NCBI GenBank assembly: GCA_031292305.1
Contig: JARLHJ010000008.1
Coordinates: 1,846 to 65,845, forward strand
DNA: 64,000 nt
Direction: 5' to 3'
From: Candidatus Babeliales bacterium
GTDB lineage: Bacteria > Babelota > Babeliae > Babelales > JABDEC01
Position 1 is the first letter of the stretch. Each line of letters starts with the position of its first letter. Below, in pieces: positions 5,398 through 36,211 of this stretch. A program made the translations under genes and the position numbers. Below the pieces are notes generated by a model that saw only the letters and a list, made by a program, of their open reading frames with translations, had not been told where the DNA came from and did no database searches.

Positions 5398-5747
5398 TGA
5401 AAAAATTAGTTTTAAGTTTAGTATGTTGCTTATTTGTTGCGCAGCTTTCAGCACAATCATTTTTTGAAAAACATCACAAACCGATTTTGTGTACAACTAT
5501 AGGTGTTTCTGTGTTTATTATTGGATATTTATTAAGAACTAAAAAAGATTTAAAAAATAAAAATTTTGATTTAAAAAGAGAAATTTGGAGAAAAAAAGAA
5601 TCTTCAATGAAAGATATAGGAATAAACACTGATAATTCTGACTCTTCAAAAAATGTATCAAAAGAAGAAAAATATATTTATCCAAAAGCTTTAAAAACTA
5701 GCAAAATGAAAGATACTAAGGCAGAAGAATTCGAATTTTATTCTTAA
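5397..5747 (+). CDS. Hypothetical signal-peptide protein (116 aa)
   Basis: GTG start overlapping the gpsA stop. Signal-like N-terminus (LVLSLVCCLFVAQLSAQS) plus one further hydrophobic segment. Lys-rich and low-complexity. Confidence 0.45.
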   Translation: MKKLVLSLVCCLFVAQLSAQSFFEKHHKPILCTTIGVSVFIIGYLLRTKKDLKNKNFDLKREIWRKKESSMKDIGINTDNSDSSKNVSKEEKYIYPKALKTSKMKDTKAEEFEFYS

Positions 5748-5838
5748 ACAAGCTGATATTTTTTTTCAATTTACAAAATATATTGTTATGATAATTTTTC
5801 TAAAAAGAGTTTAATATTTTAATTAGTTAAGGGTAAGA

Positions 5839-6135
5839 ATGAAGCAAGCGCGATTATTATTAATGTTGTTCTGTATTTCTTTTTCTATAAATATAAAATC
5901 TAACGAATTTATGATAAATGGGCTTAGAAGTATTTATAAATTATTAGACACAAAAACTCAAACTGTAGTAGCTTCAGGAACGTTACTTGCAATTGTTAAA
6001 TTTTTACGAAAAACTAAAGTATCTAAAGTTACTTTTGATTTCCCAACTTGCAAGGGTAATTTAAGAAGAAGTTCAGCATCATTAAATCTTGTTAATTTGC
6101 CAAGAACACGAATGTCAAGAAGTAAATCTATGTAG
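5839..6135 (+). CDS. Hypothetical signal-peptide protein (98 aa)
   Basis: ORF with a signal-like N-terminus (LLLMLFCISFSINIKS). No recognisable family. Confidence 0.4.
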   Translation: MKQARLLLMLFCISFSINIKSNEFMINGLRSIYKLLDTKTQTVVASGTLLAIVKFLRKTKVSKVTFDFPTCKGNLRRSSASLNLVNLPRTRMSRSKSM

Positions 6136-6137
6136 TT

Positions 6138-6836
6138 TTATTGAATAATTAATTGAACATTTAAATTTGGATTTAATTTGATCAAAGATCCAGCAAAAGG
6201 TCTTTGATCAATAATAATATAATCTTTACTTGAATTATATTCTTCATTAGGGTTTTTCATCACTAATTTAATTTGTAAATTATTTAACTTCAATAAATTA
6301 ATTACACTCTTTAGTTCTTTGCCTTTAAAATTAGGAAAAACTATTTCTTTGTTATTTCCTGAGCTTATATAAAGCAAGATCTTTTTTTCTTCAAGATTAG
6401 TATTCGGGGCCGGAAACTGTGTAATGCAGTAATTTTCTGGCAATATACTTTGTTCATAATAAATTTTTAATTTAATATTTTCTTTTGCAACAATAGGTTG
6501 AATGTCATCCAGTTTTTTGCCCATGAAATTTGGTACTTTATAAAAGTCAGGTTTTTTTGCAACGACCAAATAAATAGTTTGATTTTGTTTAACTTTTTGA
6601 TTGACTGGATTTTGAGATATAATTGTTCCTGGTATTAAATCAGGTTCTTCTTTTTGTGATAATATTCGAATATTCAGATGTGCGTCAGATAATATTTTTG
6701 TAGCTTCTATTATTGATGTTCCAACTAAATTAGGTACTTCTATTTCTTTTTTTGTATTAAAAAGTTGGTTAATTAAAAAATAACCTAAAAGAAAACTTAT
6801 AAATGGCAGGGTCCAGAGAAATTTGTTTAGTGTCAT
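6138..6836 (-). CDS. Membrane-anchored PASTA-domain protein (three PASTA-like repeats)
   Basis: N-terminal TM segment, then three repeats opening with (E/K/V)(V/F)PN(L/F)(V/M/K)G (EVPNLVGTSIIEATKIL; KVPNFMGKKLDDIQPIV; VFPNFKGKELKSVINLL), the typical PASTA start. Confidence 0.7.
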   Translation of the reverse strand: MTLNKFLWTLPFISFLLGYFLINQLFNTKKEIEVPNLVGTSIIEATKILSDAHLNIRILSQKEEPDLIPGTIISQNPVNQKVKQNQTIYLVVAKKPDFYKVPNFMGKKLDDIQPIVAKENIKLKIYYEQSILPENYCITQFPAPNTNLEEKKILLYISSGNNKEIVFPNFKGKELKSVINLLKLNNLQIKLVMKNPNEEYNSSKDYIIIDQRPFAGSLIKLNPNLNVQLIIQ

Positions 6837-6885
6837 AAAATCCCGATCATACTGAGCGAGTGAAACGAGTCGAACGTATCGATTT

Positions 6886-7268
6886 CCAAGGTAGACCTAT
6901 AAGCCGGATTCTGTTCTTTCTGTACACTGCAGTTAAGAAAGTAGCAACCATTAATCTAAGCGACATACCCGCACACTAGCTGGAATGAATTACCTAATGT
7001 GTGCCTATTTTGTCTTGCTCCAGACAGGGTTTACCCAAATATTTCATTGCTGAAATAGATCGTGCGCTCTTACCACACGTTTTCACCCTTACTTATTAAG
7101 CTCTTGCGAGCTTAATTTAGCGGTTTTTTTCTGTGGCACTTTCCATGAGTTTTCACCCTCCTTGATTGAATACCATAACAGATATTCTCCCAAGGTGCCT
7201 TCTTCATTTGGAGTCCGGACTTTCCTCTTGTAAGTTTACCTTGCAAGCGATTGCCCAGTCTACCTTTG
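6886..7268 (-). ncRNA. rnpB: RNase P RNA, bacterial type A
   Basis: The reverse complement contains GAGGAAAGTCCGGAC (P4 5' strand), GTGCCACAGAAA, AGTAAGGGTGAAAACGTGTGGTAAGAGCGCAC (compare E. coli GGUAAGGGUGAAAGGGUGCGGUAAGAGCGCAC) and ACAGAATCCGGCTTAT (P4 3' strand). The P1 stem is AAGGTAGAC / GTCTACCTT. It is a GC-richer island in a 470-nt gap with no ORF. Confidence 0.9.
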
Positions 7269-7306
7269 GATTTCAATATTAATTTTACTTAATTTATTTC
7301 ACTTTG

Positions 7307-7780
7307 TCAATTTTTAATTTTTGGATTCTTGCTCCTATAGAAGAATAACAAAATTGAAGAAATAAAGAAATTTAAAATAATTGATAAAAATATTAATTTA
7401 AAATTTAAATTTTGACCAAGAATAAAATAGTCTAAAGTTAAAAACTTAAATAAAAAATATCCAGATATTAGCAAGAATAATAATAAATAATGATATATTA
7501 CAATTTTTTTTGTTTTATTTATAATAATAAGTAACACAAAAAGAAGACCTAAATCGAGCCCAAATATTCCATAATGTAAAAACGAATTAATTAGCAGAAG
7601 AAATACAGCGCAAAGATTCTGATTTAAAGAGATTGTATTTGTTAAATTTTTCACAATTAAATAGCACAGCAAAGAGTTTATAAGATATTGATTAAATAAA
7701 CTGTAAATGCAAATATCTAGCATAAAAAAAAATAAAATTCCGACGTATGTTTTTACCTGAATTATCAATTGTTTATTCAT
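7307..7780 (-). CDS. Polytopic inner-membrane protein (157 aa, about 5 TM), function unknown
   Basis: Almost entirely hydrophobic ORF. Size and topology resemble MreD-like proteins, but no diagnostic motif was recognised. Confidence 0.5.
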   Translation of the reverse strand: MNKQLIIQVKTYVGILFFFMLDICIYSLFNQYLINSLLCYLIVKNLTNTISLNQNLCAVFLLLINSFLHYGIFGLDLGLLFVLLIIINKTKKIVIYHYLLLFLLISGYFLFKFLTLDYFILGQNLNFKLIFLSIILNFFISSILLFFYRSKNPKIKN

Positions 7781-7845
7781 ATATATTTTAAAGTTAAAAG
7801 TTTGTGTATTAATAAAACATTATTAAATTTCTAATTTATTCTAGG

Positions 7846-7873
7846 TTGACAATTAAACTATTTCAAGTAAATT
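7846..7873 (+). promoter_or_regulatory. Candidate sigma-70 promoter for the 7920 gene
   Basis: TTGACA (7846-7851), 16-nt spacer, TAAATT (7868-7873). An SD-like aaagggg lies before the ATG at 7920. Confidence 0.35.
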
Positions 7874-7919
7874 TAATCGCAGGTGTATTAAACAACTAAA
7901 AATTTTTCAAAGGGGTCTT

Positions 7920-8429
7920 ATGAAAATGCAAGTTTTATCATTATTGTTATTAGTTTCTGTCGTTTCAGTAAATGCTTCAGAAAGCGCTTTACAAGCAGCA
8001 GTTAATTCACAAAACGCAGCAAATTTTTCAGCAGCAGCATCATCTTCAGCAGCAACAGCTTCACAAGCTTCACTTGCTTTAGCAACTGAAAAGCTAGTTC
8101 TTGAAAATGTAAAAGCACAAGTAGCTTCTACAGAAGCGATGGCAAATCAAGCAGAAAAAGAAGCTGTAAAAGATGCAGCTAAATCTTTAGTTGAACAACT
8201 AAAAGCATTTACAAATTTTGATTCAAAATTAGAAAAAGCTGAATCAGCTTGGGAATTTGTATCTGTAACACATAAAAAGAAATCTTTAGCATTTGCAGCT
8301 TTAGTAGCAGCAGGTTTACTTTATAGATATAATGCAACTGTAAACGCTAATGTTAAAAAAGGGTTCAGAAAAACTAAAAGTGCTTTAGGTTTTAAATCAG
8401 AAGACACAAGATCTCAAAGAAGACAATAA
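7920..8429 (+). CDS. Ala/Ser-rich secreted protein with a C-terminal hydrophobic anchor (169 aa)
   Basis: Signal peptide (VLSLLLLVSVVSVNASE), a low-complexity A/S/Q-rich helical region, and a C-terminal segment LAFAALVAAGLLY followed by a basic tail. Flanked by a good promoter candidate and a strong terminator. Confidence 0.6.
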   Translation: MKMQVLSLLLLVSVVSVNASESALQAAVNSQNAANFSAAASSSAATASQASLALATEKLVLENVKAQVASTEAMANQAEKEAVKDAAKSLVEQLKAFTNFDSKLEKAESAWEFVSVTHKKKSLAFAALVAAGLLYRYNATVNANVKKGFRKTKSALGFKSEDTRSQRRQ

Positions 8430-8497: not shown

Positions 8498-10393
8498 GTG
8501 ATGTTAAAAACAAAAATTTCTCATCTTATTACTTTTACAATTATATTTATCGCATTTTGCTTAGGTATATTAATTGCATTGCTCAATAATAATCTAGTAG
8601 ATTTTTCAGTATTAGAAAATTATAACCCGGGCAAGCCATCTATTATATTAGATGAAGAAGGCAATGAGTGGGCAAGGTTTGAATTAGATAAACGTGATCC
8701 TGTAAAATATAATCATATTCCGCAACATTTAATCAACGCATTCGTAGCATCAGAAGATAGAGAGTTTTTTAATCATTCAGGTATTTCATTTAAAGGTATA
8801 ATCAGATCTATCGTAATAAATATTTCTAATTTGCGCATAGTCCAAGGTGCAAGTACAATTACTCAACAATTGGTTAAATTATTATTTTTTGATTCAAAAA
8901 AAACATTTCAACGTAAAGTTAAAGAACAATTTTTTGCTTTATTAGTAGAACGCCAATTTTCTAAAGAGCAAATTTTAGAAACGTATTTAAATCATGTTTA
9001 TTTTGGTTGTGGAATATATGGAATTCAAGCAGCGGCACAAAGATTTTTTTCAAAATCAGTTGATAATATAACTATTTCTGAAGCAGCTGTTTTGGCAGGT
9101 ATTGTAAGATCACCTGCCAATTATTGCCCGCTATTGTCACCAACTTCAGCACAAAAAAGAAGAGACCTTATTCTTTATCTTATGAGAGAACTAAATTTTA
9201 TAACAGTAGAAGAATATGAACAAAATAAACAGATTAAATTGTTAGTGTCACAAAATAAAAATCAAAATTTTGCGCCGCATTTAAAAGAAACGATTCGCAT
9301 TTCTTTAGAAGATAAGTTTGGCAAGCAAAGAGTTTATTGTGGTGGATTAATTATACAAACTACAATAAATAGAAAAATTCAAGAAAATGCACAACGCGAA
9401 TTTATAAATCAATTAACTAGATTAAAAAGGGATGTGAACAGCAATATTGATGGTGCATTAATTTCAATGGATGTAAAAACTGGGGAAATAAAAGCGCTTA
9501 TAGGTGGATCAGATTTTTCATGTTCTAAATTTAATAGGGCGTTACAAGCAAAGCGTCAAATGGGATCAATTTTTAAACCAATTGTTTATGCAGCAGCAGT
9601 AGAAAATAATATTAATTTTACTCATACTGAAATAGATGAACCAATGGAATTTATAACAAATAGAACCATATGGAAGCCCAAAAATAATACAGGTAACTTT
9701 GAAGGAAAAATGACATTAGCACGCGCATTATCTTATTCTAATAATATTATAGCAATTAAAACTTTATTAAAAATTGGTAGCAAGAAAGTTGCAGATTTAG
9801 CACATAAGTTTAAATTTACATCACGTATCGATCCTTACCCTGCATTGGCATTAGGTTGTTTAGATGTAACATTAAAAGAAGCTATTGCAGCATTTAATGT
9901 TTTTGCAAACAATGGTTTATATATTGAACCTCATTATATTAAATGGATTAAAAATGAATGGGGAAAGAAAATTTTTAAATCGACACCTGTTCAAGGACAA
10001 ATAATTGATCCTTTGGTAAGCGGACAAGTTGCAAAGGTTTTATCAATAGGTATCAAACGTTATTTGGGCCGTTTAAAAAATCCACCATTAAAATGTGAAG
10101 CAATTGGTAAAACTGGTACAACAAATGATTGTAGAACAAGCTGGTTTTCTGGTTCTACGCCAGAATTAACTACAACAATTTATGTTGGTTGTGATGATAA
10201 CAAGCCTATGGGAGAAAATATTTTCGGGGTGAGGACTGCGTTTCCAATTTGGTTAAATTTAAACCAGAATATACCATTCACACAAAATAAATTTGCATTT
10301 GATTTACGATTAAAAGAAATTACTATGAATTGGGTTACTGGCGAATTGTGTAATTCTTATGATCCTGAAGCTGTAAATATATTTCTAAATTAA
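8498..10393 (+). CDS. mrcA: Bifunctional class A penicillin-binding protein (glycosyltransferase + transpeptidase)
   Basis: GT51 motifs EDREFFNHSGI, GASTITQQLVK, RKVKE and KEQILETYLN. Transpeptidase motifs SIFK (SxxK), SYSN (SxN) and KTGTT. N-terminal TM anchor. The start is GTG 8498 or ATG 8501. Confidence 0.92.
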   Translation: MMLKTKISHLITFTIIFIAFCLGILIALLNNNLVDFSVLENYNPGKPSIILDEEGNEWARFELDKRDPVKYNHIPQHLINAFVASEDREFFNHSGISFKGIIRSIVINISNLRIVQGASTITQQLVKLLFFDSKKTFQRKVKEQFFALLVERQFSKEQILETYLNHVYFGCGIYGIQAAAQRFFSKSVDNITISEAAVLAGIVRSPANYCPLLSPTSAQKRRDLILYLMRELNFITVEEYEQNKQIKLLVSQNKNQNFAPHLKETIRISLEDKFGKQRVYCGGLIIQTTINRKIQENAQREFINQLTRLKRDVNSNIDGALISMDVKTGEIKALIGGSDFSCSKFNRALQAKRQMGSIFKPIVYAAAVENNINFTHTEIDEPMEFITNRTIWKPKNNTGNFEGKMTLARALSYSNNIIAIKTLLKIGSKKVADLAHKFKFTSRIDPYPALALGCLDVTLKEAIAAFNVFANNGLYIEPHYIKWIKNEWGKKIFKSTPVQGQIIDPLVSGQVAKVLSIGIKRYLGRLKNPPLKCEAIGKTGTTNDCRTSWFSGSTPELTTTIYVGCDDNKPMGENIFGVRTAFPIWLNLNQNIPFTQNKFAFDLRLKEITMNWVTGELCNSYDPEAVNIFLN

Positions 10394-24308: not shown

Positions 24309-26147
24309 ATGTGTGGTGTTGTTGGATATATTGGAAAATCATATTGTCGTGATTATATAATTCAAGGTTTGTCCAGATTAGAATATCGCGGTTATGATTC
24401 ATCTGGTATTGCTTGTATTGAACCTAAAGATAAGAAATTAGTTTTTCTTAAGTCTGAAGGCAGATTGCAAAATTTAATTGAAAAATTTAATGATTTTCCA
24501 ATTAACGGTTTTGCAGGAATTGGTCATACACGATGGTCTACGCATGGTATCGTATCACAGCAAAACGCACATCCTCAATTTGATTGTCAAAAAACTATAT
24601 CTATTGTTCATAATGGTATTATTGAAAACCACAATGATTTAAGATTAAAGCTTGAATCAGCTGGTCATATATTTAATTCAACTACGGATACAGAAGTTAT
24701 AGCCCATTTTCTCGAAGACTTACTTGTCCTGCATAAAGCTCTTATGCCAGCTTTAATTTCATTAATTAAGTGCCTAGAAGGTGCGTATGCATTTGCTTGT
24801 TTATTGCAAGATTTTTCAGATCAAATAATAGTGGTCAGAAAACGCTCGCCATTATGCATTGGTGTTGGCCAAGATGAAATGTTCATTGCCTCTGATCTAT
24901 TGGCCTTTTCTGGTCGAACAAATAAAGTTCTATTTTTGCCTGATGAAAGCTTTGCAATAATAACTAAAGATTTAATTCAGCTTTTTGATTTTAATGGAAA
25001 TGCATTGCCTATAGATATTAAAGAAGTAATCACTGATTCTACTTTGAGTCAAATGGGTGCTTATGAATCTTATATGCTCAAAGAAATATATGAGCAAAAG
25101 AGCGTAATTAATAAATGCGTTACTTCTTTTAAAGCTAGTAATATTTGGGATAACCTTGGTGTTACTCCAGAATTTATAAAAAATTTAGATACTATTAATT
25201 TAATCGCATGTGGAACCTCCTGGCATGCAGCAAAAATAGCTCAATTTTTCTTTGAAAAAATTTGTTTAATTCCTACCCGAGTGTTTCTAGCCTCTGAATT
25301 TAGATACATGCCTTTTTTTCCAGAAACAAAATCTTTATATTTAGCTATTTCTCAGTCAGGTGAGACAGCTGATACCCTAGAGGCTCTTGCATTAGTTAAA
25401 TCGATGGGTTGTGCTTCTGCAGTTATTACAAACGTGGCTTCAAGCTCAATGGTAAGGCAGGCAGATGGATTTTTATTAACCCATGCAGGTCCTGAAATTG
25501 CAGTTGCTTCAACAAAGTCTTTTACTGCACAACTGACTGCTTTATATTGGCTATGTAATAAAATGGCTTTAGAAAAATCTATCATTACGCAAAAAGAAAT
25601 GATTGCTAGCGAGGAAGATTTAAGATTAGCAGCTGAGATATTAGAAAATTGTATAGAAAATTATAAAATTAAAATCATTACAGATTTAGCTATAAAATAT
25701 GCTAGTTATAAACATTTTATTTTTTTAGGCAGGCATATTAGTTACCCATTTGCTTTAGAAGCTGCGCTTAAATTAAAAGAAATTTCTTATATATTTTCAC
25801 AATGTTATGCAGCCGGTGAATTAAAGCACGGTCCTATCGCTTTGATTGATTCGCAAACTCCGGTTATTTTATTTTCATGTTTTGATTCTGTAATTTATCA
25901 AAAATTGGTTTCTAATGCACAAGAAGTTAAATCCAGAAATGGACATTTAATAGTTTTTGCGTTTGAGGGTCAAACAGAGTTAATTAAACTTGCAGACACT
26001 GTCTTTGTTATTCCACAAATTAATCCTTTATTAGCTCCAATAGCTATGACAGGTTTAATGCAATTTTTTGTTTATCAAATTGCTAAAGTTTTGGGTCGTC
26101 CAATTGATAGACCTAGGAATTTGGCCAAATCTGTTACTGTAGAATAA
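24309..26147 (+). CDS. glmS: Glutamine--fructose-6-phosphate aminotransferase (isomerising)
   Basis: N-terminal MCGVVGY (Ntn Cys), two SIS domains (ISQSGETADT) and the C-terminal KSVTVE. Confidence 0.96.
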   Translation: MCGVVGYIGKSYCRDYIIQGLSRLEYRGYDSSGIACIEPKDKKLVFLKSEGRLQNLIEKFNDFPINGFAGIGHTRWSTHGIVSQQNAHPQFDCQKTISIVHNGIIENHNDLRLKLESAGHIFNSTTDTEVIAHFLEDLLVLHKALMPALISLIKCLEGAYAFACLLQDFSDQIIVVRKRSPLCIGVGQDEMFIASDLLAFSGRTNKVLFLPDESFAIITKDLIQLFDFNGNALPIDIKEVITDSTLSQMGAYESYMLKEIYEQKSVINKCVTSFKASNIWDNLGVTPEFIKNLDTINLIACGTSWHAAKIAQFFFEKICLIPTRVFLASEFRYMPFFPETKSLYLAISQSGETADTLEALALVKSMGCASAVITNVASSSMVRQADGFLLTHAGPEIAVASTKSFTAQLTALYWLCNKMALEKSIITQKEMIASEEDLRLAAEILENCIENYKIKIITDLAIKYASYKHFIFLGRHISYPFALEAALKLKEISYIFSQCYAAGELKHGPIALIDSQTPVILFSCFDSVIYQKLVSNAQEVKSRNGHLIVFAFEGQTELIKLADTVFVIPQINPLLAPIAMTGLMQFFVYQIAKVLGRPIDRPRNLAKSVTVE

Positions 26148-26149
26148 AA

Positions 26150-29146
26150 TTATTGTATAAATATTTTTATAGTTATTATAAATAATAATGTTAAAAATGC
26201 TGGCCAGAATAAGAATACCATTAATTTATCATTTTCTTTTTCTTTAGGTAAAAATACATCCACGTATGCTAAAGCAATAAATAGATAATCTAAGAATATG
26301 AAGTATTCTAAGAAAGAAATTGTAGTTGGAGTAATAGCTGATCTAAAGCTTTGATGTATTAAAATTAATCCAAATAATAATCCTGAATATGCTCCAATTA
26401 ATCCCATTTCATCAGTTTCTCTAATATATTTAAGTGTGAAAATACAGAATAGCGTTAATAATATTATGATCAAAGGTATGAAATAAGTTATAAATATAGG
26501 TACAAAATCGCGCTTAAGAAGAATATTTAAAGATAAATTTTTAGGTTTAACAATTTCAGTTTGTTGATTGCCATATTCGTTATCGTATGAAAAGTAGCTT
26601 TTTAATATATCAAATTCGACAATTCTTATATCTTCTCCAAATCCTGGTTTAGATTCAGGGTCTAAGCCTGGATAATCTTTAATATCCGGGATCAATAATA
26701 TTTTTTTGGTATTATCTACAGGTGATAATACAAATTTAAACAATTTAATATCAAAAGGGTATGTAGATTGCAAAGGAGTTTTTTGATAAGCACTTGATTG
26801 GCACAACCAACGTGTTGTTTGTATGTTATTAACAGTGTTTTTTATTCCTTCATCTAAGTAATAGTATAAACCATCATAAGGCGCAAGGTTAACTACTTCT
26901 ATGCCAGGATTTACATCTTTTTGAGTGTCTGTGTTTAATTTTTGCCATAAATATGCTAAAAATGTTCCTCCATCATTAACATTAAGCGATTTAAGATTTA
27001 TTCCGGCTTTTGTAGTAATAAAATTTTCTCCGGAAAAGCGTTGCATCTCTTTTTCTATTAATTGATCTAGCTCTAATCGATTAGTAATTATATTGTTATT
27101 TAGTTCTGATCTTGGATAATTATAATAAATAAATAATATGCTAATAATGCCAACTAATATAACTAGAGAATAGTAGATAACAAAGTGTTTTATATCATTT
27201 CTGTTTAGTAAATAGATCTTTGTTAAAAACATATATATAAGAATTAAAATTAAACTTAAAATTATTATAAAATAAATGAAGTAAATATATTGCTGGTTAT
27301 TAAAAATATTAAATTCATCATTTGGATAAAATACTGCTAAAGTCCAATTTGTAGTGGGTATTGATTCATAAAAAGCCCATTTTTTTTCTTGCGTTTTATT
27401 ATCTGTGAATTCCATATATCCTGAATATCCTTGTATGCCTTTATCTTGAATGATTTCTAGCTTTGGACTTATGTCATCAATTATTGCTTTAAACGTAATA
27501 TCTTGGGATATTAACTCTTTATTTGGATGGAAAATTAGATTTCCATTATTAGAAAAGATTAATGAGTTTTTTAACTTGTTTTGGCCCAGTAAAGAAATAA
27601 TATCTGAAATTGTTGAGTATGAATAAAGAATAGAAACAACGCCTTTAATTTTTTGTTTATCTTTGCCATAAAAAGGCATTGTATTCATTATAGTTATTTC
27701 ATTAGTTATGCCTTTTTCTAAAGTAGGTTCAAACCACAGATTTTTATCTGTTTCTTTAATAGTTTTGTTAAACCAGTTACTAGCGCTGTAATCATAAACT
27801 GTATCAAGCTGGCCTTTATTTACAGTACCTTCTTTGTTAATATAATATTGCCCAAATAATTTTATATCAGGTTTGTATTCATTTGGTAGGTAAGATATGT
27901 ATATACCGGCAATATATGGATATTTATCAAATTTATTTTGTAAGAATTCGGTTATATTAGATTCGGTTAATTTTTCTGTGGTTAAATCTAAAGCAATTGA
28001 AGTGTTTAGCGCTTTGATATCGTTTAAATTTTGTTGCAATAATGAACTAACATGCTCAACTTGAAGTTTGCTTTGAATAAAACTTTGCCCGGTTAATTTA
28101 ATTTTATTTTCATTGTATTTTTTTAAATAAAATCCAAATAAAATAAATAGATAACCTAATAAAATTATGATGGCAAGAAACGCAATATTGGTTTTATATT
28201 TATATAGTAAATTTAAAATTATATTAAAAGCTAAATATATAAAAAAGAACAGTGCCATTAACGTAAATATAAAAATTATAAATAATATATTTTTTAATAT
28301 TTTATATTTACCTAGTATATCTGCTTTATTTTCCTCAACAGAAATACCCCATGGAACAATAGTAAGTATGTTTCTACTATTTATAATATCAGTGTCATAA
28401 ACTTTTATTATATCAGTAGATTCCAAACCCAATAAGGCGTGGTTAATTGGATTTTTTTCATGTAAATTAAAACTTTCTGTAAAAGCTGAATCTGGATTAT
28501 ATTTTGAAGGGAAAATCACTAAGGAATTTTTACCAGATTTTTTTGCAACTAGTAGATCACCATTTTTAGTTAATTTATTAAAGTAAGTTTTTATAATTTC
28601 TGCAATTTCATTAGTATTAACTTTAACTAAAATATTACCTACATATTTATTATCTTTATATAAAGGCACCCCAATAAAAAGACTAGGCTGTTTAAAATTG
28701 GGCAAATAATCAAAATCAGAGATAGCCAATTGCGCGGAATTTTTTAATTGATCATTAACCGTAGTCAATAGTGTATTTTTGTAATTTTCATAAATATTAA
28801 TATCTACAGCTATTTCTTTTTTTAAACTAAATTTAACTTTTCCATCAGGTAATATAAATAAAACATCAGCGTAATTTGCAAGATGAGTATTTGCAATTGC
28901 ATTTGGTTCTATAATAAGATTTTGGTTTTTTGAAATAATATCCACAATATTAGAAATATTATTGGCTAAATAGTTAGTAATATCTTTGGACAAGTTTTGT
29001 TGAATATGTTCAAGCTTTTTAAATTCTGTATTTAATTCTTTATTTTTAAAATAAAGGTACGAAGAACTACCCAGACCTAAAATTATTGCTGCAGTAGTAG
29101 TTATATATAACCAAGCTAATTGTTTTCTATTTAAAGATTGAATCAT
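26150..29146 (-). CDS. Multidomain membrane receptor: two dCache-like periplasmic modules plus a C-terminal pentameric ligand-gated ion-channel (pLGIC)-like module
   Basis: 998 aa. Hydrophobic segments are placed so that three soluble blocks face the same side. The second block shows dCache-like strings (NLWFEPTLEKGITNEITIMNTMPFYGKDKQKIKGVVSILYSY; NSLIFSNNGNLIFHPNKE; NWTLAVFYPNDEF). The last ~310 aa carry pLGIC hallmarks: STYPFDIKLFKFVLS (YPFD at aa 796-799, nt 26750-26761), pre-M1 LNILLKRDFVPIFITYFIPLII, and 4 TM segments with ITPTTISFLEYFIFLDYLFIALAYVDV (M2-M3/M3-like). Confidence 0.7.
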   Translation of the reverse strand: MIQSLNRKQLAWLYITTTAAIILGLGSSSYLYFKNKELNTEFKKLEHIQQNLSKDITNYLANNISNIVDIISKNQNLIIEPNAIANTHLANYADVLFILPDGKVKFSLKKEIAVDINIYENYKNTLLTTVNDQLKNSAQLAISDFDYLPNFKQPSLFIGVPLYKDNKYVGNILVKVNTNEIAEIIKTYFNKLTKNGDLLVAKKSGKNSLVIFPSKYNPDSAFTESFNLHEKNPINHALLGLESTDIIKVYDTDIINSRNILTIVPWGISVEENKADILGKYKILKNILFIIFIFTLMALFFFIYLAFNIILNLLYKYKTNIAFLAIIILLGYLFILFGFYLKKYNENKIKLTGQSFIQSKLQVEHVSSLLQQNLNDIKALNTSIALDLTTEKLTESNITEFLQNKFDKYPYIAGIYISYLPNEYKPDIKLFGQYYINKEGTVNKGQLDTVYDYSASNWFNKTIKETDKNLWFEPTLEKGITNEITIMNTMPFYGKDKQKIKGVVSILYSYSTISDIISLLGQNKLKNSLIFSNNGNLIFHPNKELISQDITFKAIIDDISPKLEIIQDKGIQGYSGYMEFTDNKTQEKKWAFYESIPTTNWTLAVFYPNDEFNIFNNQQYIYFIYFIIILSLILILIYMFLTKIYLLNRNDIKHFVIYYSLVILVGIISILFIYYNYPRSELNNNIITNRLELDQLIEKEMQRFSGENFITTKAGINLKSLNVNDGGTFLAYLWQKLNTDTQKDVNPGIEVVNLAPYDGLYYYLDEGIKNTVNNIQTTRWLCQSSAYQKTPLQSTYPFDIKLFKFVLSPVDNTKKILLIPDIKDYPGLDPESKPGFGEDIRIVEFDILKSYFSYDNEYGNQQTEIVKPKNLSLNILLKRDFVPIFITYFIPLIIILLTLFCIFTLKYIRETDEMGLIGAYSGLLFGLILIHQSFRSAITPTTISFLEYFIFLDYLFIALAYVDVFLPKEKENDKLMVFLFWPAFLTLLFIITIKIFIQ

Positions 29147-30402
29147 TTTGTCCCCTGATTATATAACTCTTCACTTATTTTATTCCATTCCTGTTTTGTT
29201 TTTTGTAATGGATTAAATTTTTCAATAATTAACTCTTCAGGATATATAATAGGTTTTAATGGGCTATTGCTTTGCCAAATAATTTCTGGGTTTGGTGATG
29301 TTAATTTTAATATTCTTGGTGTTTTATAAGTATAATGATTAGTATCGATTGTAATTAACCCTGCAGCTAATTCTAATTTAGAATTAATAAGTGTGGTTGT
29401 TATTTTTTTGACATTAGTACTATTTGCTTTTTTAACTGCTTGTTTCCAGAATTGTACACCATTGTAAGCAGACTCTATGAAATCATTAACTTCTTGGTCC
29501 TTTCCGTATTTGTCCTTAATGCGCTTTTTAAAATTATCACTTTCTTTGGTGTCAATGGACTCAAAATAATTACCTGCTAAATAAGTGTTATCTATATCAG
29601 AGGCAAAAGATAGCTCATTTTGTGTTAATCCAATTGAAATTATGGCCAATTTTTTTTGTTCTTTTAAATTTTTAATATCTTTAAATAGAATAAGCGAACT
29701 ATCTAAATTAAGAATATTTAAAACTATTTGAGCATTTGATTTTTCAATATTAGTTATAATTGGACTAAAGTCTTTTTGATAAGATTCAACAGTTTCTTGG
29801 CCTACAATTTCACATCCCATATTGGGTAATATAGTTTTTAAAAATTCTATAGTAATTTTTGAAAAATAATTATTTGATCCCAGTAAATAAAATTTATTGC
29901 CAATATTGTTTTCAGCCCAACTAATTGCAGGAATTAAGTATTGGTTTGGTGCAGCACCGGTGTAAAATATATTAGGTGATTCTTCTAATCCCTCATTAAA
30001 ACCAGGAAAAAATAATAACTTATCATATTTTTCAACTACCGCTTTTAAAGACTTTCTTGAACTTGGAGTCAGACCGCCGAAAATTATATCTACTTTCTCA
30101 TTTTTTATTAGATATTCAGCTTGTTTTGCGAATGTTTTATTGTCAGATTTTCCATCTAATGTAATAGGTTCAATTATTCTATTTAAAAGCCCGCCCGATT
30201 TATTAATTTCATCAATTGCAAGTAAAGTAGCTTCCATTATTGCTTCTTCAGTAGATGCCATTTCACCGCTTAAAGAATGAATGATTCCTACTTTAATAGG
30301 TCTTTCTATGCTATTTATGGAATAGTAATATATTCCCACAAAAGCCGCTAATAAAAATATTGCAAAAAAAATTACTTTAATAAGAATCTTATTTAAATTC
30401 AT
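29143..30402 (-). CDS. Membrane-anchored type-1 periplasmic binding protein, UrtA/FmdD/AmiC (urea/short-chain-amide) family-like
   Basis: After an N-terminal TM: IKVGIIHSLSGEMASTEEAIMEATLLAIDEINKSGGLLNRIIEPITLDGKSD and FFPGFNEGLEESPNIFYTGAAPNQYLIPAISW. These resemble the UrtA/AmiC blocks as I recall them (vGiLhSlsGtma.sE; YEGlE.SpNvfYtGAaPNQq). Its stop overlaps the start of the 998-aa gene (ATGA). No ABC permease or ATPase gene lies nearby. Confidence 0.72.
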   Translation of the reverse strand: MNLNKILIKVIFFAIFLLAAFVGIYYYSINSIERPIKVGIIHSLSGEMASTEEAIMEATLLAIDEINKSGGLLNRIIEPITLDGKSDNKTFAKQAEYLIKNEKVDIIFGGLTPSSRKSLKAVVEKYDKLLFFPGFNEGLEESPNIFYTGAAPNQYLIPAISWAENNIGNKFYLLGSNNYFSKITIEFLKTILPNMGCEIVGQETVESYQKDFSPIITNIEKSNAQIVLNILNLDSSLILFKDIKNLKEQKKLAIISIGLTQNELSFASDIDNTYLAGNYFESIDTKESDNFKKRIKDKYGKDQEVNDFIESAYNGVQFWKQAVKKANSTNVKKITTTLINSKLELAAGLITIDTNHYTYKTPRILKLTSPNPEIIWQSNSPLKPIIYPEELIIEKFNPLQKTKQEWNKISEELYNQGTK

Positions 30403-30408
30403 TTTTTA

Positions 30409-30594
30409 TTACTTTTTACATTCACATTTATCAGAGGTATATTTTCCTACTTCCCAATTATCTTTACCGCAAACTGTAGGACAGATTTTTTTAGCTTCAT
30501 TTTCACTATTTATTTTTTTTGGTGCAGGCTTTTGAACTTTTGCAAAAATATTCATGGTTAAAGATAATAATAAGCAAATAATTAAATTTTTCAC
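30409..30594 (-). CDS. Small secreted 4-Cys peptide (61-aa precursor)
   Basis: GTG start preceded by aaaggagaag. Signal peptide MKNLIICLLLSLTMNIFA, then a mature Lys-rich peptide with ICPTVCGKDNWEVGKYTSDKCECKK. It ends 6 nt before the binding-protein gene start. Confidence 0.55.
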   Translation of the reverse strand: MKNLIICLLLSLTMNIFAKVQKPAPKKINSENEAKKICPTVCGKDNWEVGKYTSDKCECKK

Positions 30595-30716
30595 AGCTTC
30601 TCCTTTTTTTCAGTTTGTACTTAATCAGATCTTAAAATATTTGTTTAATTAAAGTCAATAATAATTTTACATAGATTTAGCTTTTTTCTTGTAAATAATA
30701 AAATTATTTTTGTACA

Positions 30717-31013
30717 ATGGTTTTTATGAATAAAAAAAATATTAAAAAGTTGTTTTTACGAGCAATATTGTTTGTTGAGATATTAATTTTTGGATTTACA
30801 TATCTATTTGGGTCCAATGGTTTATATTATTTAAAAGATTTAGATAAAGAAAATCATCAACTAAACAATGAGGTTTTGAACTTAAAATCCGAAATTTCAT
30901 CAATTGAGAGCCAAATAAATGAATGGTCCACTGATCCTTTTTATAAAGAACAATTAGCTCGTGAAAAACTACAGTTAGCTCGTGAAAATGAAAAAATCTT
31001 TTATATACAATAA
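30717..31013 (+). CDS. ftsB: Septum formation initiator, FtsB/DivIC family
   Basis: Short bitopic protein with a TM segment (AILFVEILIFGFTYLFG), a coiled coil and the C-terminal DPFYKEQLAREKLQLARENEKIF, typical of FtsB. The start could be ATG 30726 (MNKKN). Confidence 0.7.
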   Translation: MVFMNKKNIKKLFLRAILFVEILIFGFTYLFGSNGLYYLKDLDKENHQLNNEVLNLKSEISSIESQINEWSTDPFYKEQLAREKLQLARENEKIFYIQ

Positions 31014-31024
31014 TCAAGGAAAAC

Positions 31025-31642
31025 ATGACAAAGTTTATTTTACCACCGTTACCATATTCTTTTGGTGCGTTAGAACCTTATATAGATGCACAAACAATGG
31101 AAATACATCATGATAGACATCATGCTACTTATGTAGAAAAATTAAACCATGCATTAGAAAAACACACTGAATTACAATCAAAAACTGTTCAAGAATTATT
31201 ATTAAGCCTAGATAAACTACCTGCAGAAATAAAAACAGAGGTTAGAAATAATGGCGGTGGTCATCTTAATCATTCAATGTTTTGGCTTATGCTTAAACAA
31301 AATGGTGGTAAAATGCCACAAGGTAAAGTGTATGATGCAATAAAAAAAGATTTTAATAATTTTGAAGCTTTTAAAGTAGAGTTTAACGCAAAAGCTAAAT
31401 CTGTTTTTGGCAGCGGATGGGCATGGTTAGTAATTAATAAAGATGGCAAATTAGAAATTACTGCAACCCATAACCAAGATAATCCTATAGAAAAGAATAT
31501 GCAGCCAATTTTAGGTTTAGATGTTTGGGAACATGCTTATTATTTAAAGTATCAAAATAAACGCCCTGATTACATTAACGCTTGGTGGAATGTTATAAAC
31601 TGGGAACAAGTTGAAGAGAATTACGATAATATCCTAGGATAA
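31025..31642 (+). CDS. sodA: Superoxide dismutase, Fe/Mn family (Mn-type signature)
   Basis: LPYSFGALEPYID..MEIHHDRHH, NNGGGHLNHSMFW (GGGH is typical of the Mn type, versus AAQ in the Fe type) and DVWEHAYYL. Confidence 0.9.
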   Translation: MTKFILPPLPYSFGALEPYIDAQTMEIHHDRHHATYVEKLNHALEKHTELQSKTVQELLLSLDKLPAEIKTEVRNNGGGHLNHSMFWLMLKQNGGKMPQGKVYDAIKKDFNNFEAFKVEFNAKAKSVFGSGWAWLVINKDGKLEITATHNQDNPIEKNMQPILGLDVWEHAYYLKYQNKRPDYINAWWNVINWEQVEENYDNILG

Positions 31643-31708: not shown

Positions 31709-32545
31709 TTACTCACCGCGCCAAGTCACTTCAAAGCTTTGGCCATTTTTTAATAATGAAGAAGTGATTGCTTTTAAACCAGTATTACTAATCATATTTA
31801 AAGCAGTATTTTGAGTATTAGCTACTTTATTAATTGCATTAGAAACACCATTAATTTTTGCAGTACACTTAGTAAAAGTAATAGGTGAGAAATGTGCCAA
31901 TGGCAATATTGAATTCATATAAGGTGCTTCAACAACCCATTCAGCACAAACGCGTTGAGCGGTTGTAGAAGTTGTGTATTTAGTAGGAATTACACTTCTT
32001 ACTTTTTTTGTATTATTTGCAATTGATAAAACGAATACATTGTTGCCTTTGTAAACTACAGAAGCAGTAATTGAATCTCCAGCTTTCACAGGAAAATTTG
32101 TGATAGAATATGAATAATCAGGATACATTTCATACCATGCATAATTAACTTGTTTGCCATTTACCCAATCACACTCTGTACCTAATTGTTCTACTGAACT
32201 ACTTGCAAATCCATCAATTCCTACCCAAACTGAGCAATATGAATGATCAGGTGTAGGTGAAAGTGTAGGCACGTTCCATGTTCCATAAATTTCAGAAACT
32301 GAGTTTTTAGCAGGGTTTTTTAAGTTAGTAGCAGTAACGTATCCACTCCAATTGGTACTCGATTCAGTAATCTCTTTTATACCCAAATGAGGGTGTGAAC
32401 CATGACGTCTAGAATCTTTTCTTTGTGAATTTCTTACAATAGGCATTAATTTACATTCTAATAGTTCATAACCATCAGAATCTTTTACTGCAAATATTTG
32501 AAAGTTTGCTGAGATTAATAACGCTAATACTAGTACCTTTTTCAT
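31709..32545 (-). CDS. Secreted glutamic peptidase, MEROPS G1 (eqolisin / Peptidase_A4) family, copy 1
   Basis: Signal peptide plus propeptide-like region. Then TNWSGYV, VWVGIDG...VEQLGT (catalytic Gln context), YAWYEMYP, AGDSITASV, AEWVVEAP (catalytic Glu context) and LPLAHFSPITFTKC. These are collinear with scytalidoglutamic peptidase blocks (SNWGGA, WVGIDGD..ILQTG, DAWYEWYP, EGDSI, AEFIIEDF, FASFSPAVEFTDC, from memory). Confidence 0.8.
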   Translation of the reverse strand: MKKVLVLALLISANFQIFAVKDSDGYELLECKLMPIVRNSQRKDSRRHGSHPHLGIKEITESSTNWSGYVTATNLKNPAKNSVSEIYGTWNVPTLSPTPDHSYCSVWVGIDGFASSSVEQLGTECDWVNGKQVNYAWYEMYPDYSYSITNFPVKAGDSITASVVYKGNNVFVLSIANNTKKVRSVIPTKYTTSTTAQRVCAEWVVEAPYMNSILPLAHFSPITFTKCTAKINGVSNAINKVANTQNTALNMISNTGLKAITSSLLKNGQSFEVTWRGE

Positions 32546-32574: not shown

Positions 32575-33423
32575 TTACTCGTGTTTCCATACTACGTTAA
32601 AGCCTTGTCCACCATTTGTTAATGTAGAGGTTAATGCTTTAAATCCACCATTATAAATCATATTTATTGCCGCATTTTGAAAAAATGTGCTATTAATTTG
32701 TTTATATAAACCATTAATTACAGTAGTACATCCTATAAAGTTCACCTGAGAAAAATTTGCAAGAGGTAATATGCTATTATATTCAGGTGCTTCTGCAATC
32801 CATTCAGCTGAAGATCTTAAAGCTGTGGTAGAAGTGGTATATTGTGTAGGAATCGAAGTATGAACTTTTTTTGTGTTATTAGCGATTGATAATAAAAATA
32901 TTCCATCACCTTGATAAACAACTGAAGCACTAATTGAATCCCCAACCTTTAGTGGGAAATTTGAAATGACAGATGCACCTTGTGGGTACATTTCAAACCA
33001 AGCATAATCATATTGAGAATTGTTTACCCATTCATGTCCTGTTCCTAATTGTTCTACAGTAGGGCTTTTGTATCCATCAATTCCAACCCACAATGAGCAA
33101 TATGAAGTGTCAGGAGTAGGACTTAATTTTGGGACATTCCATGAGCCAGAAACTGCAGTTACTGAATTAACAGCTGGAGTTTGTAAATTTGTAACTTCTA
33201 CATAGCCACTCCAATTTTGACTATTTAAAGTAGTGTTTTCAACAAACGTTTTTATAGCAGGAATGTGAGGTTGCGAAGGGTGTTTTTTGTTTTTTATTTT
33301 TAACTTTTTTTTATCAAAAGGTTGTAATTTACATTCAATAAATTTATACCCAGTGGTATCAATTGTCGAATACAATTGAATATTAACTGAAAGTAGTAAA
33401 AAAATTACTAATAATTTTTTCAT
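32575..33423 (-). CDS. Secreted glutamic peptidase, G1 (eqolisin) family, copy 2
   Basis: Same blocks as copy 1: QNWSGYV, LWVGIDG..VEQLGT, YAWFEMYP, VGDSISASV, AEWIAEAP, LPLANFSQVNFIGC. Tandem paralogue of 31709-32545. Confidence 0.8.
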   Translation of the reverse strand: MKKLLVIFLLLSVNIQLYSTIDTTGYKFIECKLQPFDKKKLKIKNKKHPSQPHIPAIKTFVENTTLNSQNWSGYVEVTNLQTPAVNSVTAVSGSWNVPKLSPTPDTSYCSLWVGIDGYKSPTVEQLGTGHEWVNNSQYDYAWFEMYPQGASVISNFPLKVGDSISASVVYQGDGIFLLSIANNTKKVHTSIPTQYTTSTTALRSSAEWIAEAPEYNSILPLANFSQVNFIGCTTVINGLYKQINSTFFQNAAINMIYNGGFKALTSTLTNGGQGFNVVWKHE

Positions 33424-35763: not shown

Positions 35764-35979
35764 TTATCTGACAGTTTTAGGTGCTGGTCTAGGAGCTATT
35801 GATTCATCATGAGCGGTAATGCAAGAACTATAAACTAAACCCGAATTTTTCGCTTGAAGTTTAGCAGCATCAACACCTTTGGTATTAAGTGTGCTTTTTA
35901 ATGAGTTACATTGGCTTGTAGTCATTGCGTTCATTCCACTAATTGACAACAATACAGTAAAAATTAATAATTTTTTCAT
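35764..35979 (-). CDS. Small secreted protein (71 aa, 2 Cys)
   Basis: The start is placed at MKKLLIFTVLLSISGMNA (ATG at 35977-35979) because aggaga (rc of tctcct, 35985-35990) lies 5 nt upstream. The track start at 36009 adds 10 residues. Confidence 0.5.
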   Translation of the reverse strand: MKKLLIFTVLLSISGMNAMTTSQCNSLKSTLNTKGVDAAKLQAKNSGLVYSSCITAHDESIAPRPAPKTVR

Positions 35980-36211
35980 TTTAATCTCCTTTTTTATATT
36001 AGAATTCAAACCTCAAATTTAAGTATACTGTAAAAGTTGTATAAAAAACAACAGATAGAAATAAAAAAACAAAGAAGATTGTAGATTTGGGTAGTTTTCA
36101 GGTTTAAACAAGGGTTGTCTTTATTTTCTATGTGAAACATTTTGGGTATGCTATTTAAGCGTTTTTTACTACACAATCTAATCGTTGCGCAAAATAACTA
36201 CAAATTTTTAA

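Follow-up and report, generated by a model that had tools for sequence, protein, structure and literature searches.

What is a relative of the urea-binding protein UrtA doing directly 5' of the gene for a putative ligand-gated channel in a Dependentiae (TM6) bacterium? In the window, by which is meant the whole 64-kb stretch of DNA analysed, three tightly packed minus-strand ORFs encode, 5' to 3', a 61-aa peptide, a 419-aa periplasmic binding protein (PBP) and a 998-aa receptor (Table 1). A preliminary description had pointed to near-zero spacing of the three genes, a GTG start with a strong Shine-Dalgarno sequence for the peptide, an interval of 6 nt between its stop and the PBP ATG, and an ATGA (29143-29146) in which the PBP stop overlaps the receptor start; ORF coordinates and the sequence itself confirm all four, AGGAG standing 5 nt upstream of the GTG. 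Separate terminators, which would have spoken for independent expression, were looked for on the coding strand from 25800 to 31200 with no terminator-like site found, and therefore there is none between the three genes. The promoter entered in Table 1 is a mere candidate, since promoter-like matches in the AT-rich region around the operon occur at chance density.

Table 1. Features of the three-gene locus, in window coordinates and in the order of the coding strand
Feature	Position	Strand	Basis
Candidate operon promoter, TTGACT-18-TAAGAT, 5' of peptide gene	30629..30658	-	consensus scan
Shine-Dalgarno AGGAG of the peptide gene	30600..30604	-	sequence
61-aa secreted peptide precursor, GTG start	30409..30594	-	ORF
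419-aa membrane-anchored type-I PBP (Peripla_BP_5, UrtA-like)	29143..30402	-	Pfam, NCBIfam, PDB
PBP N-terminal TM anchor, residues 6-24, ILIKVIFFAIFLLAAFVGI	30331..30387	-	hydropathy analysis
998-aa receptor: TM0, dCache D1, TM hairpin, dCache D2, TM hairpin, predicted pLGIC extracellular domain, M1-M4	26150..29146	-	
D1 sensor, residues 36-284, double-Cache fold	28295..29041	-	AF2, Foldseek, HMM
First TM hairpin, D1 to D2 linker, residues 287-339	28130..28288	-	hydropathy analysis
D2 sensor, residues 345-620, dCache_1	27287..28114	-	Pfam 7.2e-16
Second TM hairpin, residues 623-673	27128..27280	-	hydropathy analysis
Predicted pLGIC extracellular beta-sandwich, residues ~674-883, Pro-loop YPFD at residues 796-799	26498..27127	-	alignment, GLIC profile match, AF2, Foldseek
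Predicted pLGIC M1-M4, residues 884-993	26168..26497	-	alignment, profile, AF2, Foldseek, hydropathy

The label 'Cache-pLGIC' initially given to the receptor is borne out, its first half by Pfam and its second by a GLIC profile match together with AF2 and Foldseek. Pfam applied to the 998 aa reports dCache_1 only, and neither Neur_chan_LBD nor Neur_chan_memb matches the C-terminal 350 aa of the receptor or of 10 relatives; this is a limit of sensitivity with a subfamily too divergent for the Pfam models, and does not contradict the fold evidence. In an alignment of 20 sequences the Pro-loop Pro and Asp never vary, the pre-M1 Arg and M1 Pro (within RDFVPIFITYFIP, residues 879-891) hardly ever, and the family profile matches GLIC at E 3.6e-8 with the Pro-loop motif, the Arg and the M1 Pro aligned. 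The AF2 model of residues 650-998 (349 aa, pLDDT 82) has about 10 strands and then four long helices, and the top PDB matches that Foldseek returns for it are all pLGICs (GLIC and GABA-A receptors at E ~1e-12, with TM 0.61-0.68 against GLIC). With its modelled beta-sandwich followed by M1-M4, the C-terminus is a predicted pLGIC subunit. As for the sensors, the D2 HMM matches nearly all of the ~700-aa Cache-pLGIC receptors, so that D2 is common to that family; D1 gives an AF2 model of pLDDT 76, for which the best Foldseek matches are the dCache domains of Mlp24, KinD, PctA and Tlp3 (TM 0.65-0.70).

Pfam and hydropathy likewise uphold the initial view of the 419-aa protein as a type-1 PBP with an N-terminal TM anchor. 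It matches Peripla_BP_5 (PF13433) over its full length (E 2.4e-94, profile positions 1-359 of 363), and its N-terminus, where no lipobox is present, holds a single 19-residue hydrophobic segment with about 10 residues intervening before the first beta-strand. PDB matches are to 8tg1 (6.9e-80), UrtA 7s6f (1.8e-59) and AmiC (4e-28). The closest curated family is UrtA (TIGR03407), yet the score against it, 307.6 bits versus a cut-off of 492.75, is the lowest of the clade, sensor-linked relatives scoring 411-517 and a genuine UrtA (P0028) 618. Sensor-linked PBPs all have a TM anchor and, at the C-terminus, a W..LY..WG..W tail, which is truncated in the PBPs of the window and of its closest relative, the 78%-identical L001; anchor and tail are both absent from transporter UrtAs, that of Paenibacillus having a lipoprotein signal instead.

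How often such a protein accompanies such a receptor was assessed in a census that took in 80 Cache-pLGIC loci from metagenomes together with earlier loci. A UrtA-like PBP is encoded directly 5' of all seven informative receptors that contain D1 (strong matches, 570-700 bits) versus one of 52 that lack it, a pairing for which Fisher p = 2e-8, uncorrected for phylogeny: the loci are not phylogenetically independent and the seven D1 loci amount to about six lineages. The D1 receptors are mutually only 19-33% identical, bar one close pair, and their loci range from 27 to 43% GC. The PBP and receptor genes overlap, or nearly so, in L001, L002, L008, L009, L010, L011 and L015. Beyond the PBP-linked receptors the D1 HMM matches just two proteins, the L003 kinase (3.8e-45) and a kinase of Anabaena azotica, L091 (7.5e-56); each is a dCache-HAMP histidine kinase with a D1-matching sensor and a member of the same PBP clade encoded beside it. 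The earlier proposal of the PBP as a co-receptor gains support here of a comparative kind, from overlapping genes in 7/7 informative D1 loci.

Might the PBP nevertheless be the ordinary solute-binding protein (SBP) of an ABC transporter for urea or amides whose genes lie elsewhere in the genome, the place of the PBP beside the receptor being due to co-regulation or chance? UrtA is after all its nearest curated family, clade members carry the NCBI name 'urea ABC transporter substrate-binding protein', and with 64 kb of the genome in view a distant urtBCDE is possible. Against this, a Walker A motif and an ABC signature (LSGGQ-type) motif occur together in no ORF of the 64-kb window, and tblastn with genuine UrtB/C/D/E queries draws a blank there and in 9 related loci alike, so the initial statement that the window has no ABC permease or ATPase genes holds, and the check for urtBCDE partners comes out negative for every receptor-linked locus as well; the genuine UrtA of Paenibacillus (L092) sits in urtABCDE beside urease genes. 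Nor would a transporter component be expected to keep overlapping adjacency across receptors as divergent as those above, to possess the anchor and tail that transporter UrtAs lack, or to fall so far under the UrtA cut-off with two of eight pocket residues left, and in a completed Anabaena genome the gene that comes after that of the clade member encodes a histidine kinase, not a permease. We regard the transporter explanation as very unlikely; on the comparative sequence evidence it is very probable that the tethered PBP works as dedicated partner to the Cache-pLGIC, with no part in transport.

Where on the receptor would such a partner dock? D1 could not be the sole docking surface, because the UrtA-like PBP of L009 is paired with a receptor of D2 and pLGIC only and the sensors of L005 and L006 give a weak D1 match or none. 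One could go further and have the PBP dock on D2 or on the pLGIC extracellular domain, with D1 an independent extra sensor whose co-occurrence is a lineage effect; L009 would suit this, as would four D1-less receptors with another type-I PBP (Peripla_BP_6) tightly upstream. However, D1 and PBP also travel together in the histidine kinases, which have neither D2 nor pLGIC, an association difficult to account for if D1 were not the element that faces the PBP. Docking on D2 or the pLGIC extracellular domain is an unlikely alternative to docking on D1.

The peptide had been offered as a ligand, a modulator or an unrelated passenger, and the whole as a three-gene sensory module. Its precursor consists of a signal peptide, which ends ...NIFA|K, and a mature part that is lysine-rich, ~43 aa long and contains 4 Cys; no match turns up in Pfam, NCBIfam or the PDB even at E 10. 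Were the module truly one of three genes, with the secreted peptide acting on the PBP or receptor, the position of its gene 6 nt 5' of the PBP, with a strong Shine-Dalgarno of its own and on a strand where no terminator-like site was found, would be as expected, as would its retention in L001 at the same position with 76% identity and 4/4 Cys. But the peptide is absent 5' of the PBP in L002, L003, L005, L006, L009, L011 and L015 (in L008 and L010 the upstream sequence is too short to judge), and tblastn against 92 loci gives no homolog beyond the window and L001; furthermore those UrtA and AmiC members whose ligand is known bind small amides and not peptides, with the proviso that a remodelled pocket might take something larger. 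The module is one of two genes and not three, because the peptide is conserved in the closest relative only. So the neighbourhood comparison does not bear out the three-gene module, a peptide ligand or modulator within it being highly improbable, and of the roles first listed that of passenger stands: by sequence comparison the 4-Cys peptide is a lineage-specific passenger outside the conserved module, its gene presumably co-transcribed with those for PBP and receptor as baggage of this lineage.

Then there is the matter of what the PBP binds. AmiC binds acetamide. UrtA binds urea, with eight pocket residues, W120, S122, Y141, Q144, E146, Y190, N246 and S274, reported to be strictly conserved across its homologs (PMC10392092). 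At these positions the window PBP reads L, P, F, F, E, N, N and G, keeping two and losing six, and its L001 counterpart has five of the eight replaced. The sequence blocks earlier taken as typical of the UrtA/FmdD/AmiC clade are real family motifs, though of the framework only, the actual urea-contact residues being mostly replaced, and the urea or short-amide specificity they implied for the window PBP is not supported. Urea is unlikely as its ligand, judging from the six lost contact residues and the failed UrtA cut-off. Several relatives linked to pLGICs or kinases retain all eight residues, and their ligand, going by the pocket sequence, is probably urea.

The same losses mean that the window PBP may bind no small ligand at all. 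Its role in the channel would then be that of a subunit that works without ligand, for structure, assembly or constitutive modulation, with sensing left to D2 and/or the pLGIC extracellular domain, and the replaced contacts in both window and L001, the truncation of the tail in both, and the lowest TIGR03407 score of the clade could all be seen as marks of such a fate. Decay, however, would hardly leave the two PBPs the same at 7/8 pocket positions when they are 82% identical overall, which suggests constrained retargeting (with two sequences, a weak point); the remaining fold is intact over the full Peripla_BP_5 model, and the pockets of the L008 and L015 PBPs are also altered in a non-random pattern that fits ligand switching. 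Loss of ligand binding seems to us an improbable outcome.

The pairing of PBP and receptor suggests a two-part chemical sensor, and that the two genes encode an SBP-dependent ionotropic sensor in this Dependentiae bacterium is the reading we favour as reasonably probable. The PBP, descended from urea-binding UrtA proteins and recruited to signalling instead of transport, would be tethered to the inner membrane, on the outer side, by its uncleaved N-terminal anchor, and its Venus-flytrap cleft would take up a small ligand, in the Dependentiae lineage probably not urea, given a pocket remodelled to L/P/F/F/N/G. Most likely when closed and liganded, it would dock on the periplasmic part of the receptor, the extra N-terminal dCache D1 being the most likely site, and so allosterically bias opening of the C-terminal channel, with changes in ion flux and membrane potential as the outcome; D2 and the pLGIC extracellular domain may supply further direct inputs. 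A chemotaxis role, as proposed in 2005, is not obviously applicable because Dependentiae are non-motile; they live inside protists as obligate parasites and few of their signalling systems are known, and a predicted sensory ion channel is now indicated for them.

A bolder generalisation, to which we would give slightly less than an even chance, is that of a portable 'plug-in' sensor: a tethered UrtA-derived PBP with its dedicated docking dCache D1 would have been grafted, via a TM hairpin, onto a pre-existing Cache-pLGIC, and the same cassette would drive cyanobacterial kinases. If true, this would be the first class of ion channel gated in trans by a solute-binding protein, members with an intact pocket would be urea-gated channels or kinases, and the Dependentiae version would be retargeted to another ligand, possibly host-derived. 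Bacterial pLGICs serve as structural models of human neurotransmitter receptors, and to our knowledge hardly any of them has an established physiological ligand or role. The pairing offers a tangible and testable way to ask whether an SBP gates a pentameric channel in trans, the predicted agonist in intact-pocket relatives being urea. A further gain is the definition of a signalling subclade among 'UrtA' proteins that are at present auto-annotated as transporter parts, including that of cultured Anabaena, in which genetics is feasible.

How does the locus stand beside systems already known? With UrtA (PDB 8HIC, 7S6E, 7S6F; PMC10392092) the window PBP shares fold and family (E ~1e-59), but it is without urtBCDE partner genes in the 64-kb window, and sensor-linked PBPs differ in having a TM anchor where UrtA has a cleaved or lipoprotein signal, plus the C-terminal extension. 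With AmiC it shares type-I PBP structure and Pfam family, at much weaker similarity than with UrtA. AmiC is a sensor, not a transport protein; it is cytosolic and partnered by the ANTAR protein AmiR of an antitermination switch, whereas the window PBP is anchored, extracytoplasmic and neighbour to a channel, and has beside it the peptide and receptor genes and no ANTAR gene.

DeCLIC is the sole pLGIC with an N-terminal accessory domain characterised structurally. That domain has two lobes, NTD1 and NTD2, homologous in structure to regulatory domains that bind calcium and joined to the ECD without a TM segment in between; the description of DeCLIC includes no separate binding protein (PMC12664993). 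Like DeCLIC, whose accessory domains modulate gating, the window receptor is a predicted prokaryotic pLGIC with large periplasmic additions; unlike it, there are two dCache domains, TM hairpins between modules and a separate PBP, so it does not belong with DeCLIC as a type. By functional analogy one may also think of eukaryotic ionotropic glutamate receptors, where PBP-fold clamshells control an ion channel. There the tetrameric P-loop channel has its PBP domains in cis, as fusions, while here the PBP is a separate polypeptide proposed to act in trans, and the channel is of the pentameric Pro-loop type; the two kinds of channel are not homologous. Gating of a pentameric channel by an SBP in trans would, if true, be a bacterial counterpart of that arrangement.

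Closest in concept are the predictions of Tasneem, Iyer, Jakobsson and Aravind (2005), who reported MCP-N/Cache-pLGIC and PBP-I-pLGIC fusions as well as operons in which pLGIC genes are accompanied by stand-alone PBP-II or Cache genes, and who proposed that the products cooperate (PMC549065). Those systems and the present one have in common a Cache-type sensor N-terminal to the pLGIC core, a PBP genetically linked to the channel and prediction from genes alone; distinctive here are a PBP-I from the UrtA/Peripla_BP_5 clade that stands alone and is TM-anchored, an extra dCache D1 that tracks with it, and TM hairpins parting the sensors from the channel. The docking of SBPs on dCache-type receptors, with a type-I or type-II SBP as primary ligand sensor, is well established for LuxP-LuxQ, BasB-BasT (Peripla_BP_6) and HptA-HptS, ChvE-VirA being also among SBP-dependent receptors (PMC8050422). 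As in these, a stand-alone SBP gene adjoins that for a dCache receptor (7/7 D1 receptors and the kinase versions), and the kinase-output cassettes of L003 and Anabaena fit the class directly. The window locus departs from it in that the SBP is membrane-tethered and the output is a predicted ion channel, where the class otherwise has a chemoreceptor, a kinase or a c-di-GMP enzyme; neither 'ion channel' nor 'Peripla_BP_5' came up when the text of that review was searched for these terms. The word 'undescribed', used at the outset, is then too strong for the PBP/Cache-pLGIC concept, predicted in 2005, and for SBP-dCache docking, and is apt for the specific combination: the cassette of UrtA-like PBP and D1 dCache, used with channel or kinase outputs, appears to be new.

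The gene for each of the closest relatives of the window's UrtA-like periplasmic binding protein (PBP) is followed by one for a membrane sensor. In L001, the locus nearest to the window, the peptide gene, the PBP gene (82% identity for the protein) and the gene for a 1004-aa receptor are syntenic counterparts of those in the window, and in L002 a PBP of 42% identity precedes a 1029-aa receptor homologous to that of the window across almost its full length (E 3e-62); in L003 the PBP is followed by a dCache-HAMP histidine kinase, and in L005 and L006 by Cache-like HAMP sensors. A search starting from the channel gave L008, L009 and L010, in each of which a Peripla_BP_5 gene overlaps the beginning of the receptor gene. 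These pairings were set in a census of 80 further Cache-pLGIC loci, drawn from a metagenome scan with a tight alignment (A3) and scored with local HMM profiles for the PBP, the pLGIC module, the N-terminal dCache domain (D1) and the second dCache domain (D2). An UrtA-like PBP (570-700 bit) lies directly upstream, on the same strand and overlapping, in all seven informative receptors with D1 (the window, L001, L002, L008, L010, L011 and L015; an eighth, L012, is at a contig edge and outside the count) and in one of the 52 informative receptors that lack D1, an association with a Fisher p of 2e-8 without phylogenetic correction. PBP and D1 are co-inherited over deep divergence: apart from the window/L001 pair the seven receptors have mutual identities of 19-33%, and the GC contents of their loci lie between 27 and 43%.

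The single D1-less case is L009, where a strong UrtA-like PBP with seven of the eight urea-pocket residues considered below has a gene that runs into that of a 703-aa receptor consisting of D2 and pLGIC only; D1 is thus not a prerequisite for pairing with a PBP of this clade. An absolute restriction of the PBP to the ~1000-aa architecture was accordingly dropped; after the 80-locus census the restriction stands as a strong rule that allows exceptions. Four D1-less Cache-pLGICs of ~700 aa (L035, L055, L084 and L086) have another type-I PBP, of the Peripla_BP_6 family and 380-420 aa long, tightly upstream (gap -34 to +2 nt), and Cache-pLGICs appear to have recruited PBP partners on more than one occasion. 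Other D1-less receptors have neighbours of unrelated kinds: a CDF transporter, TPR proteins, a secretin and glycosyltransferases. The CDF-family cation-efflux gene (Cation_efflux plus ZT_dimer), in L037, abuts the gene for a 711-aa Cache-pLGIC with stop/start overlap, which hints at a link of some Cache-pLGICs to metal-ion homeostasis. Additional pLGIC-type or duplicated genes occur in L023, L028, L031 and L046, in L056 and L067, and in L020, L034, L039-L043 and L079: several Cache-pLGIC loci have, a few kb further downstream, a second stand-alone pLGIC (~381-390 aa), or have the Cache-pLGIC gene duplicated in tandem, and in some an ORF directly downstream, ~366 aa long (L039: 212 aa), gives a weak pLGIC-profile match (26-34 bits).

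Is the receptor rightly termed a Cache-pLGIC? Pfam assigns to its 998 residues dCache_1 alone (residues 363-605) and has no model covering the C-terminal 349-residue region. Hydropathy gives nine TM segments and periplasmic modules at residues ~34-286 (D1), ~340-622 (D2) and ~674-883, with four TM helices after the third. HMMER, queried with the C-terminal 349 residues, found 1082 relatives among 1.84 billion cluster representatives, and in these the pLGIC-like region is nearly always C-terminal in proteins of ~700 or ~1000 aa. A 20-sequence alignment of the region has an invariant YPFD-type Pro-loop, with the pre-M1 Arg and the M1 Pro present and a variable M1-M2 loop of mixed charges across the family; the profile derived from it matches GLIC (E 3.6e-8). 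An AlphaFold model of the region (pLDDT 82) matches exclusively pLGICs in the PDB, with TM scores of 0.61-0.68 to GLIC and E ~1e-12 to GABA-A, glycine and nicotinic receptors. The model of D1, built from 7 sequences (pLDDT 76), is a double-Cache domain with Mlp24, KinD, PctA/B, Tlp3 and DctB as best matches. On this combination of Pfam, hydropathy, alignment and profile, and structure-model evidence the receptor is dCache-TM hairpin-dCache-TM hairpin-pLGIC, and the label first put on it was right. At rank 40 the D1 model also matches part of PDB 5ere, a 540-aa 'Extracellular ligand binding receptor' of Desulfohalobium retbaense, which might be a solved PBP-plus-Cache-like fusion of relevance to the packing of the two folds. 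A scan of the contig collection with the full receptor, made by way of peptide patterns, returned solely an unrelated Clostridium dCache match.

D1 is not confined to channels. An earlier BLASTP match outside them (1e-12) is extended by matches of the D1 profile to the sensor domains of two histidine kinases encoded after PBPs of the clade, that of L003 (3.8e-45) and that of L091 in the complete Anabaena azotica genome (7.5e-56), and the PBP and D1 are thus portable between channel and kinase. The sensors of L005 and L006 are of a different Cache-like type (D1 HMM 1.5e-6 or no match), and by BLASTP the L005 sensor is without significant similarity to the receptor. Because of these two sensors and of L009, D1 is not the sole partner surface of the PBP clade. 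As a transporter control, L092 has a genuine Paenibacillus UrtA inside urtABCDE beside urease genes; with its UrtB-E as queries, neither the window nor any of nine sensor-linked loci gave a match, and these are without local transporter partners.

The window PBP is of type I and matches the Peripla_BP_5 family over the full length (E 2.4e-94). Its solved relatives are, best first, 8tg1 (6.9e-80) and cyanobacterial UrtA urea-binding proteins (~1e-59), with AmiC much further (4e-28). It has one N-terminal hydrophobic segment (residues 6-24), without a lipobox, and with only ~10 residues between it and the strand that opens the fold. All the sensor-linked PBPs have such a TM anchor as well as a W..LY..WG..W tail at the C-terminus, and transporter UrtAs have neither. 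Eight urea-pocket residues (W120, S122, Y141, Q144, E146, Y190, N246 and S274) are reported to be strictly conserved among UrtAs, and urea binding is weakened or lost when S122, Q144, Y190 or N246 is mutated (PMC10392092). All eight are found in the channel-linked PBPs of L002, L010 and L011 and in the kinase- or sensor-linked PBPs of L003, L005, L006 and Anabaena; retention is 7/8 in L009, 5/8 in L008, 4/8 in L015 and 3/8 in L001. Scores against the nearest curated family, UrtA (TIGR03407), form a gradient that parallels pocket retention, from 618 bits for a transporter UrtA through 411-517 for the other sensor-linked PBPs to 307-308 for the window and L001. On the pocket counts and this gradient, urea can reasonably be predicted as the ligand of part of the clade. 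The prediction does not extend to the window PBP, for which a urea-type specificity had been implied: with 307.6 bits against a cut-off of 492.75 and two of the eight residues kept (its own being L, P, F, F, E, N, N and G), its predicted pocket is remodelled toward more hydrophobic side chains.

Several sensor-linked PBPs, at 498-517 bits, pass the cut-off of the NCBI UrtA model (L091 8001-11385 in Anabaena azotica CP178454.1, the protein P0007, L010 and L011) and are therefore automatically named 'urea ABC transporter substrate-binding protein'. The next gene to these is for a dCache histidine kinase or a pLGIC, with no urtBCDE nearby, and a signalling subclade is probably being mis-annotated here in a systematic way.

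Features in the window and comparison loci
Locus	Feature	Coordinates	Strand	Length (aa)	Remark
Window	Peptide ORF	30594-30409	-	61	GTG start
Window	PBP ORF	30402-29143	-	419	
Window	Receptor ORF	29146-26150	-	998	
Window	ATGA overlap	29143-29146	-		PBP stop, receptor start
Window	Secreted protein	31709-32545	-	278	tandem paralogue
Window	Secreted protein	32575-33423	-	282	tandem paralogue
Window	Small secreted-protein candidate	35764-36009	-	81	two Cys
L002	Protein at peptide position	4501-4818		105	two TM
L003	Protein at peptide position	8603-9994		463	no Pfam match
L009	PBP and D1-less receptor	4706-8112			receptor of 703 aa
L037	CDF-family cation-efflux gene	1414-2739			
L037	Cache-pLGIC gene	2739-4871		711	

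The preliminary description of three tightly packed genes on one strand is accurate, since ORF calls and direct reading of the sequence (AGGAG 5 nt ahead of the peptide GTG, a 6-nt gap from the peptide stop to the PBP ATG, and the PBP stop overlapping the receptor start in ATGA) agree with consensus scans, in which no terminator-like site was found on the coding strand across 25800-31200 and one promoter-like site lies upstream of the peptide gene, such matches being at chance density in DNA of 25-30% GC. The host assignment has its counterpart in GyrB, encoded in the window, whose named relatives are only Candidatus Dependentiae/Babeliales (65-66% identity).

The peptide begins with a plausible signal peptide (…NIFA|K); its mature part, ~43 aa long, is rich in lysine and contains four Cys. 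The peptide gave no match in Pfam or NCBIfam (E <= 10) or, by phmmer, to all PDB sequences (E <= 10), and with these searches empty a supposed resemblance to small lectins of MVL/'mannan-binding' type was dropped. Its one homologue is in L001 (76% identity, all Cys kept); a peptide gene upstream of the PBP is absent in L002, L003, L005, L006, L009, L011 and L015. The peptide had been counted a member of the module, and as its gene occurs in the window and L001 only, the putative conserved module is one of two genes, not three. Its position is occupied in L002 by an unrelated two-TM protein with a weak DUF3185 match and in L003 by another unrelated protein. Nearby in the window are the tandem paralogous secreted proteins, whose syntenic counterparts in L001 carry Pfam Peptidase_A4, a scytalidoglutamic-type acid peptidase family best known from fungi, and, within a few kb of the module, an ORF of 81 aa whose N-terminus resembles a signal peptide.

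An SBP-dependent ionotropic sensor is the best-supported reading. The tethered PBP would sense a small ligand and dock on the periplasmic part of the receptor, with D1 the most probable site, and docking would modulate the pentameric channel. The suggestion that the PBP may serve as a co-receptor is strongly backed by comparative genomics, through its co-inheritance and portability.

The claim that such a module is entirely undescribed did not survive the literature. Tasneem et al. reported in 2005 MCP-N/Cache-pLGIC and PBP-I-pLGIC fusions, and operons in which pLGIC genes are accompanied by stand-alone genes for PBP-II or Cache, and proposed functional cooperation of such partners (PMC549065). 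SBP docking on dCache-type receptors is documented in a review of SBP signalling, in whose text a term search found neither 'ion channel' nor 'Peripla_BP_5' (PMC8050422), and DeCLIC is the sole NTD-bearing pLGIC characterised to date (PMC12664993). The amide-SBP system of a bioRxiv paper, SBP_bac_5 with a cytosolic AmiC-like protein, is different from the UrtA-like PBP clade. Literature searches on urea-sensing kinases, Peripla_BP_5 signalling and pLGICs in Dependentiae gave nothing relevant, and in the literature searched there was no description of the cassette of UrtA-like PBP and D1. Given the precedents, the pairing is therefore not a categorically new system but would be a variant of a predicted kind; it is of value because it offers a testable way towards a first SBP-gated pLGIC and a basis for re-annotating a signalling subclade of 'UrtA' proteins.
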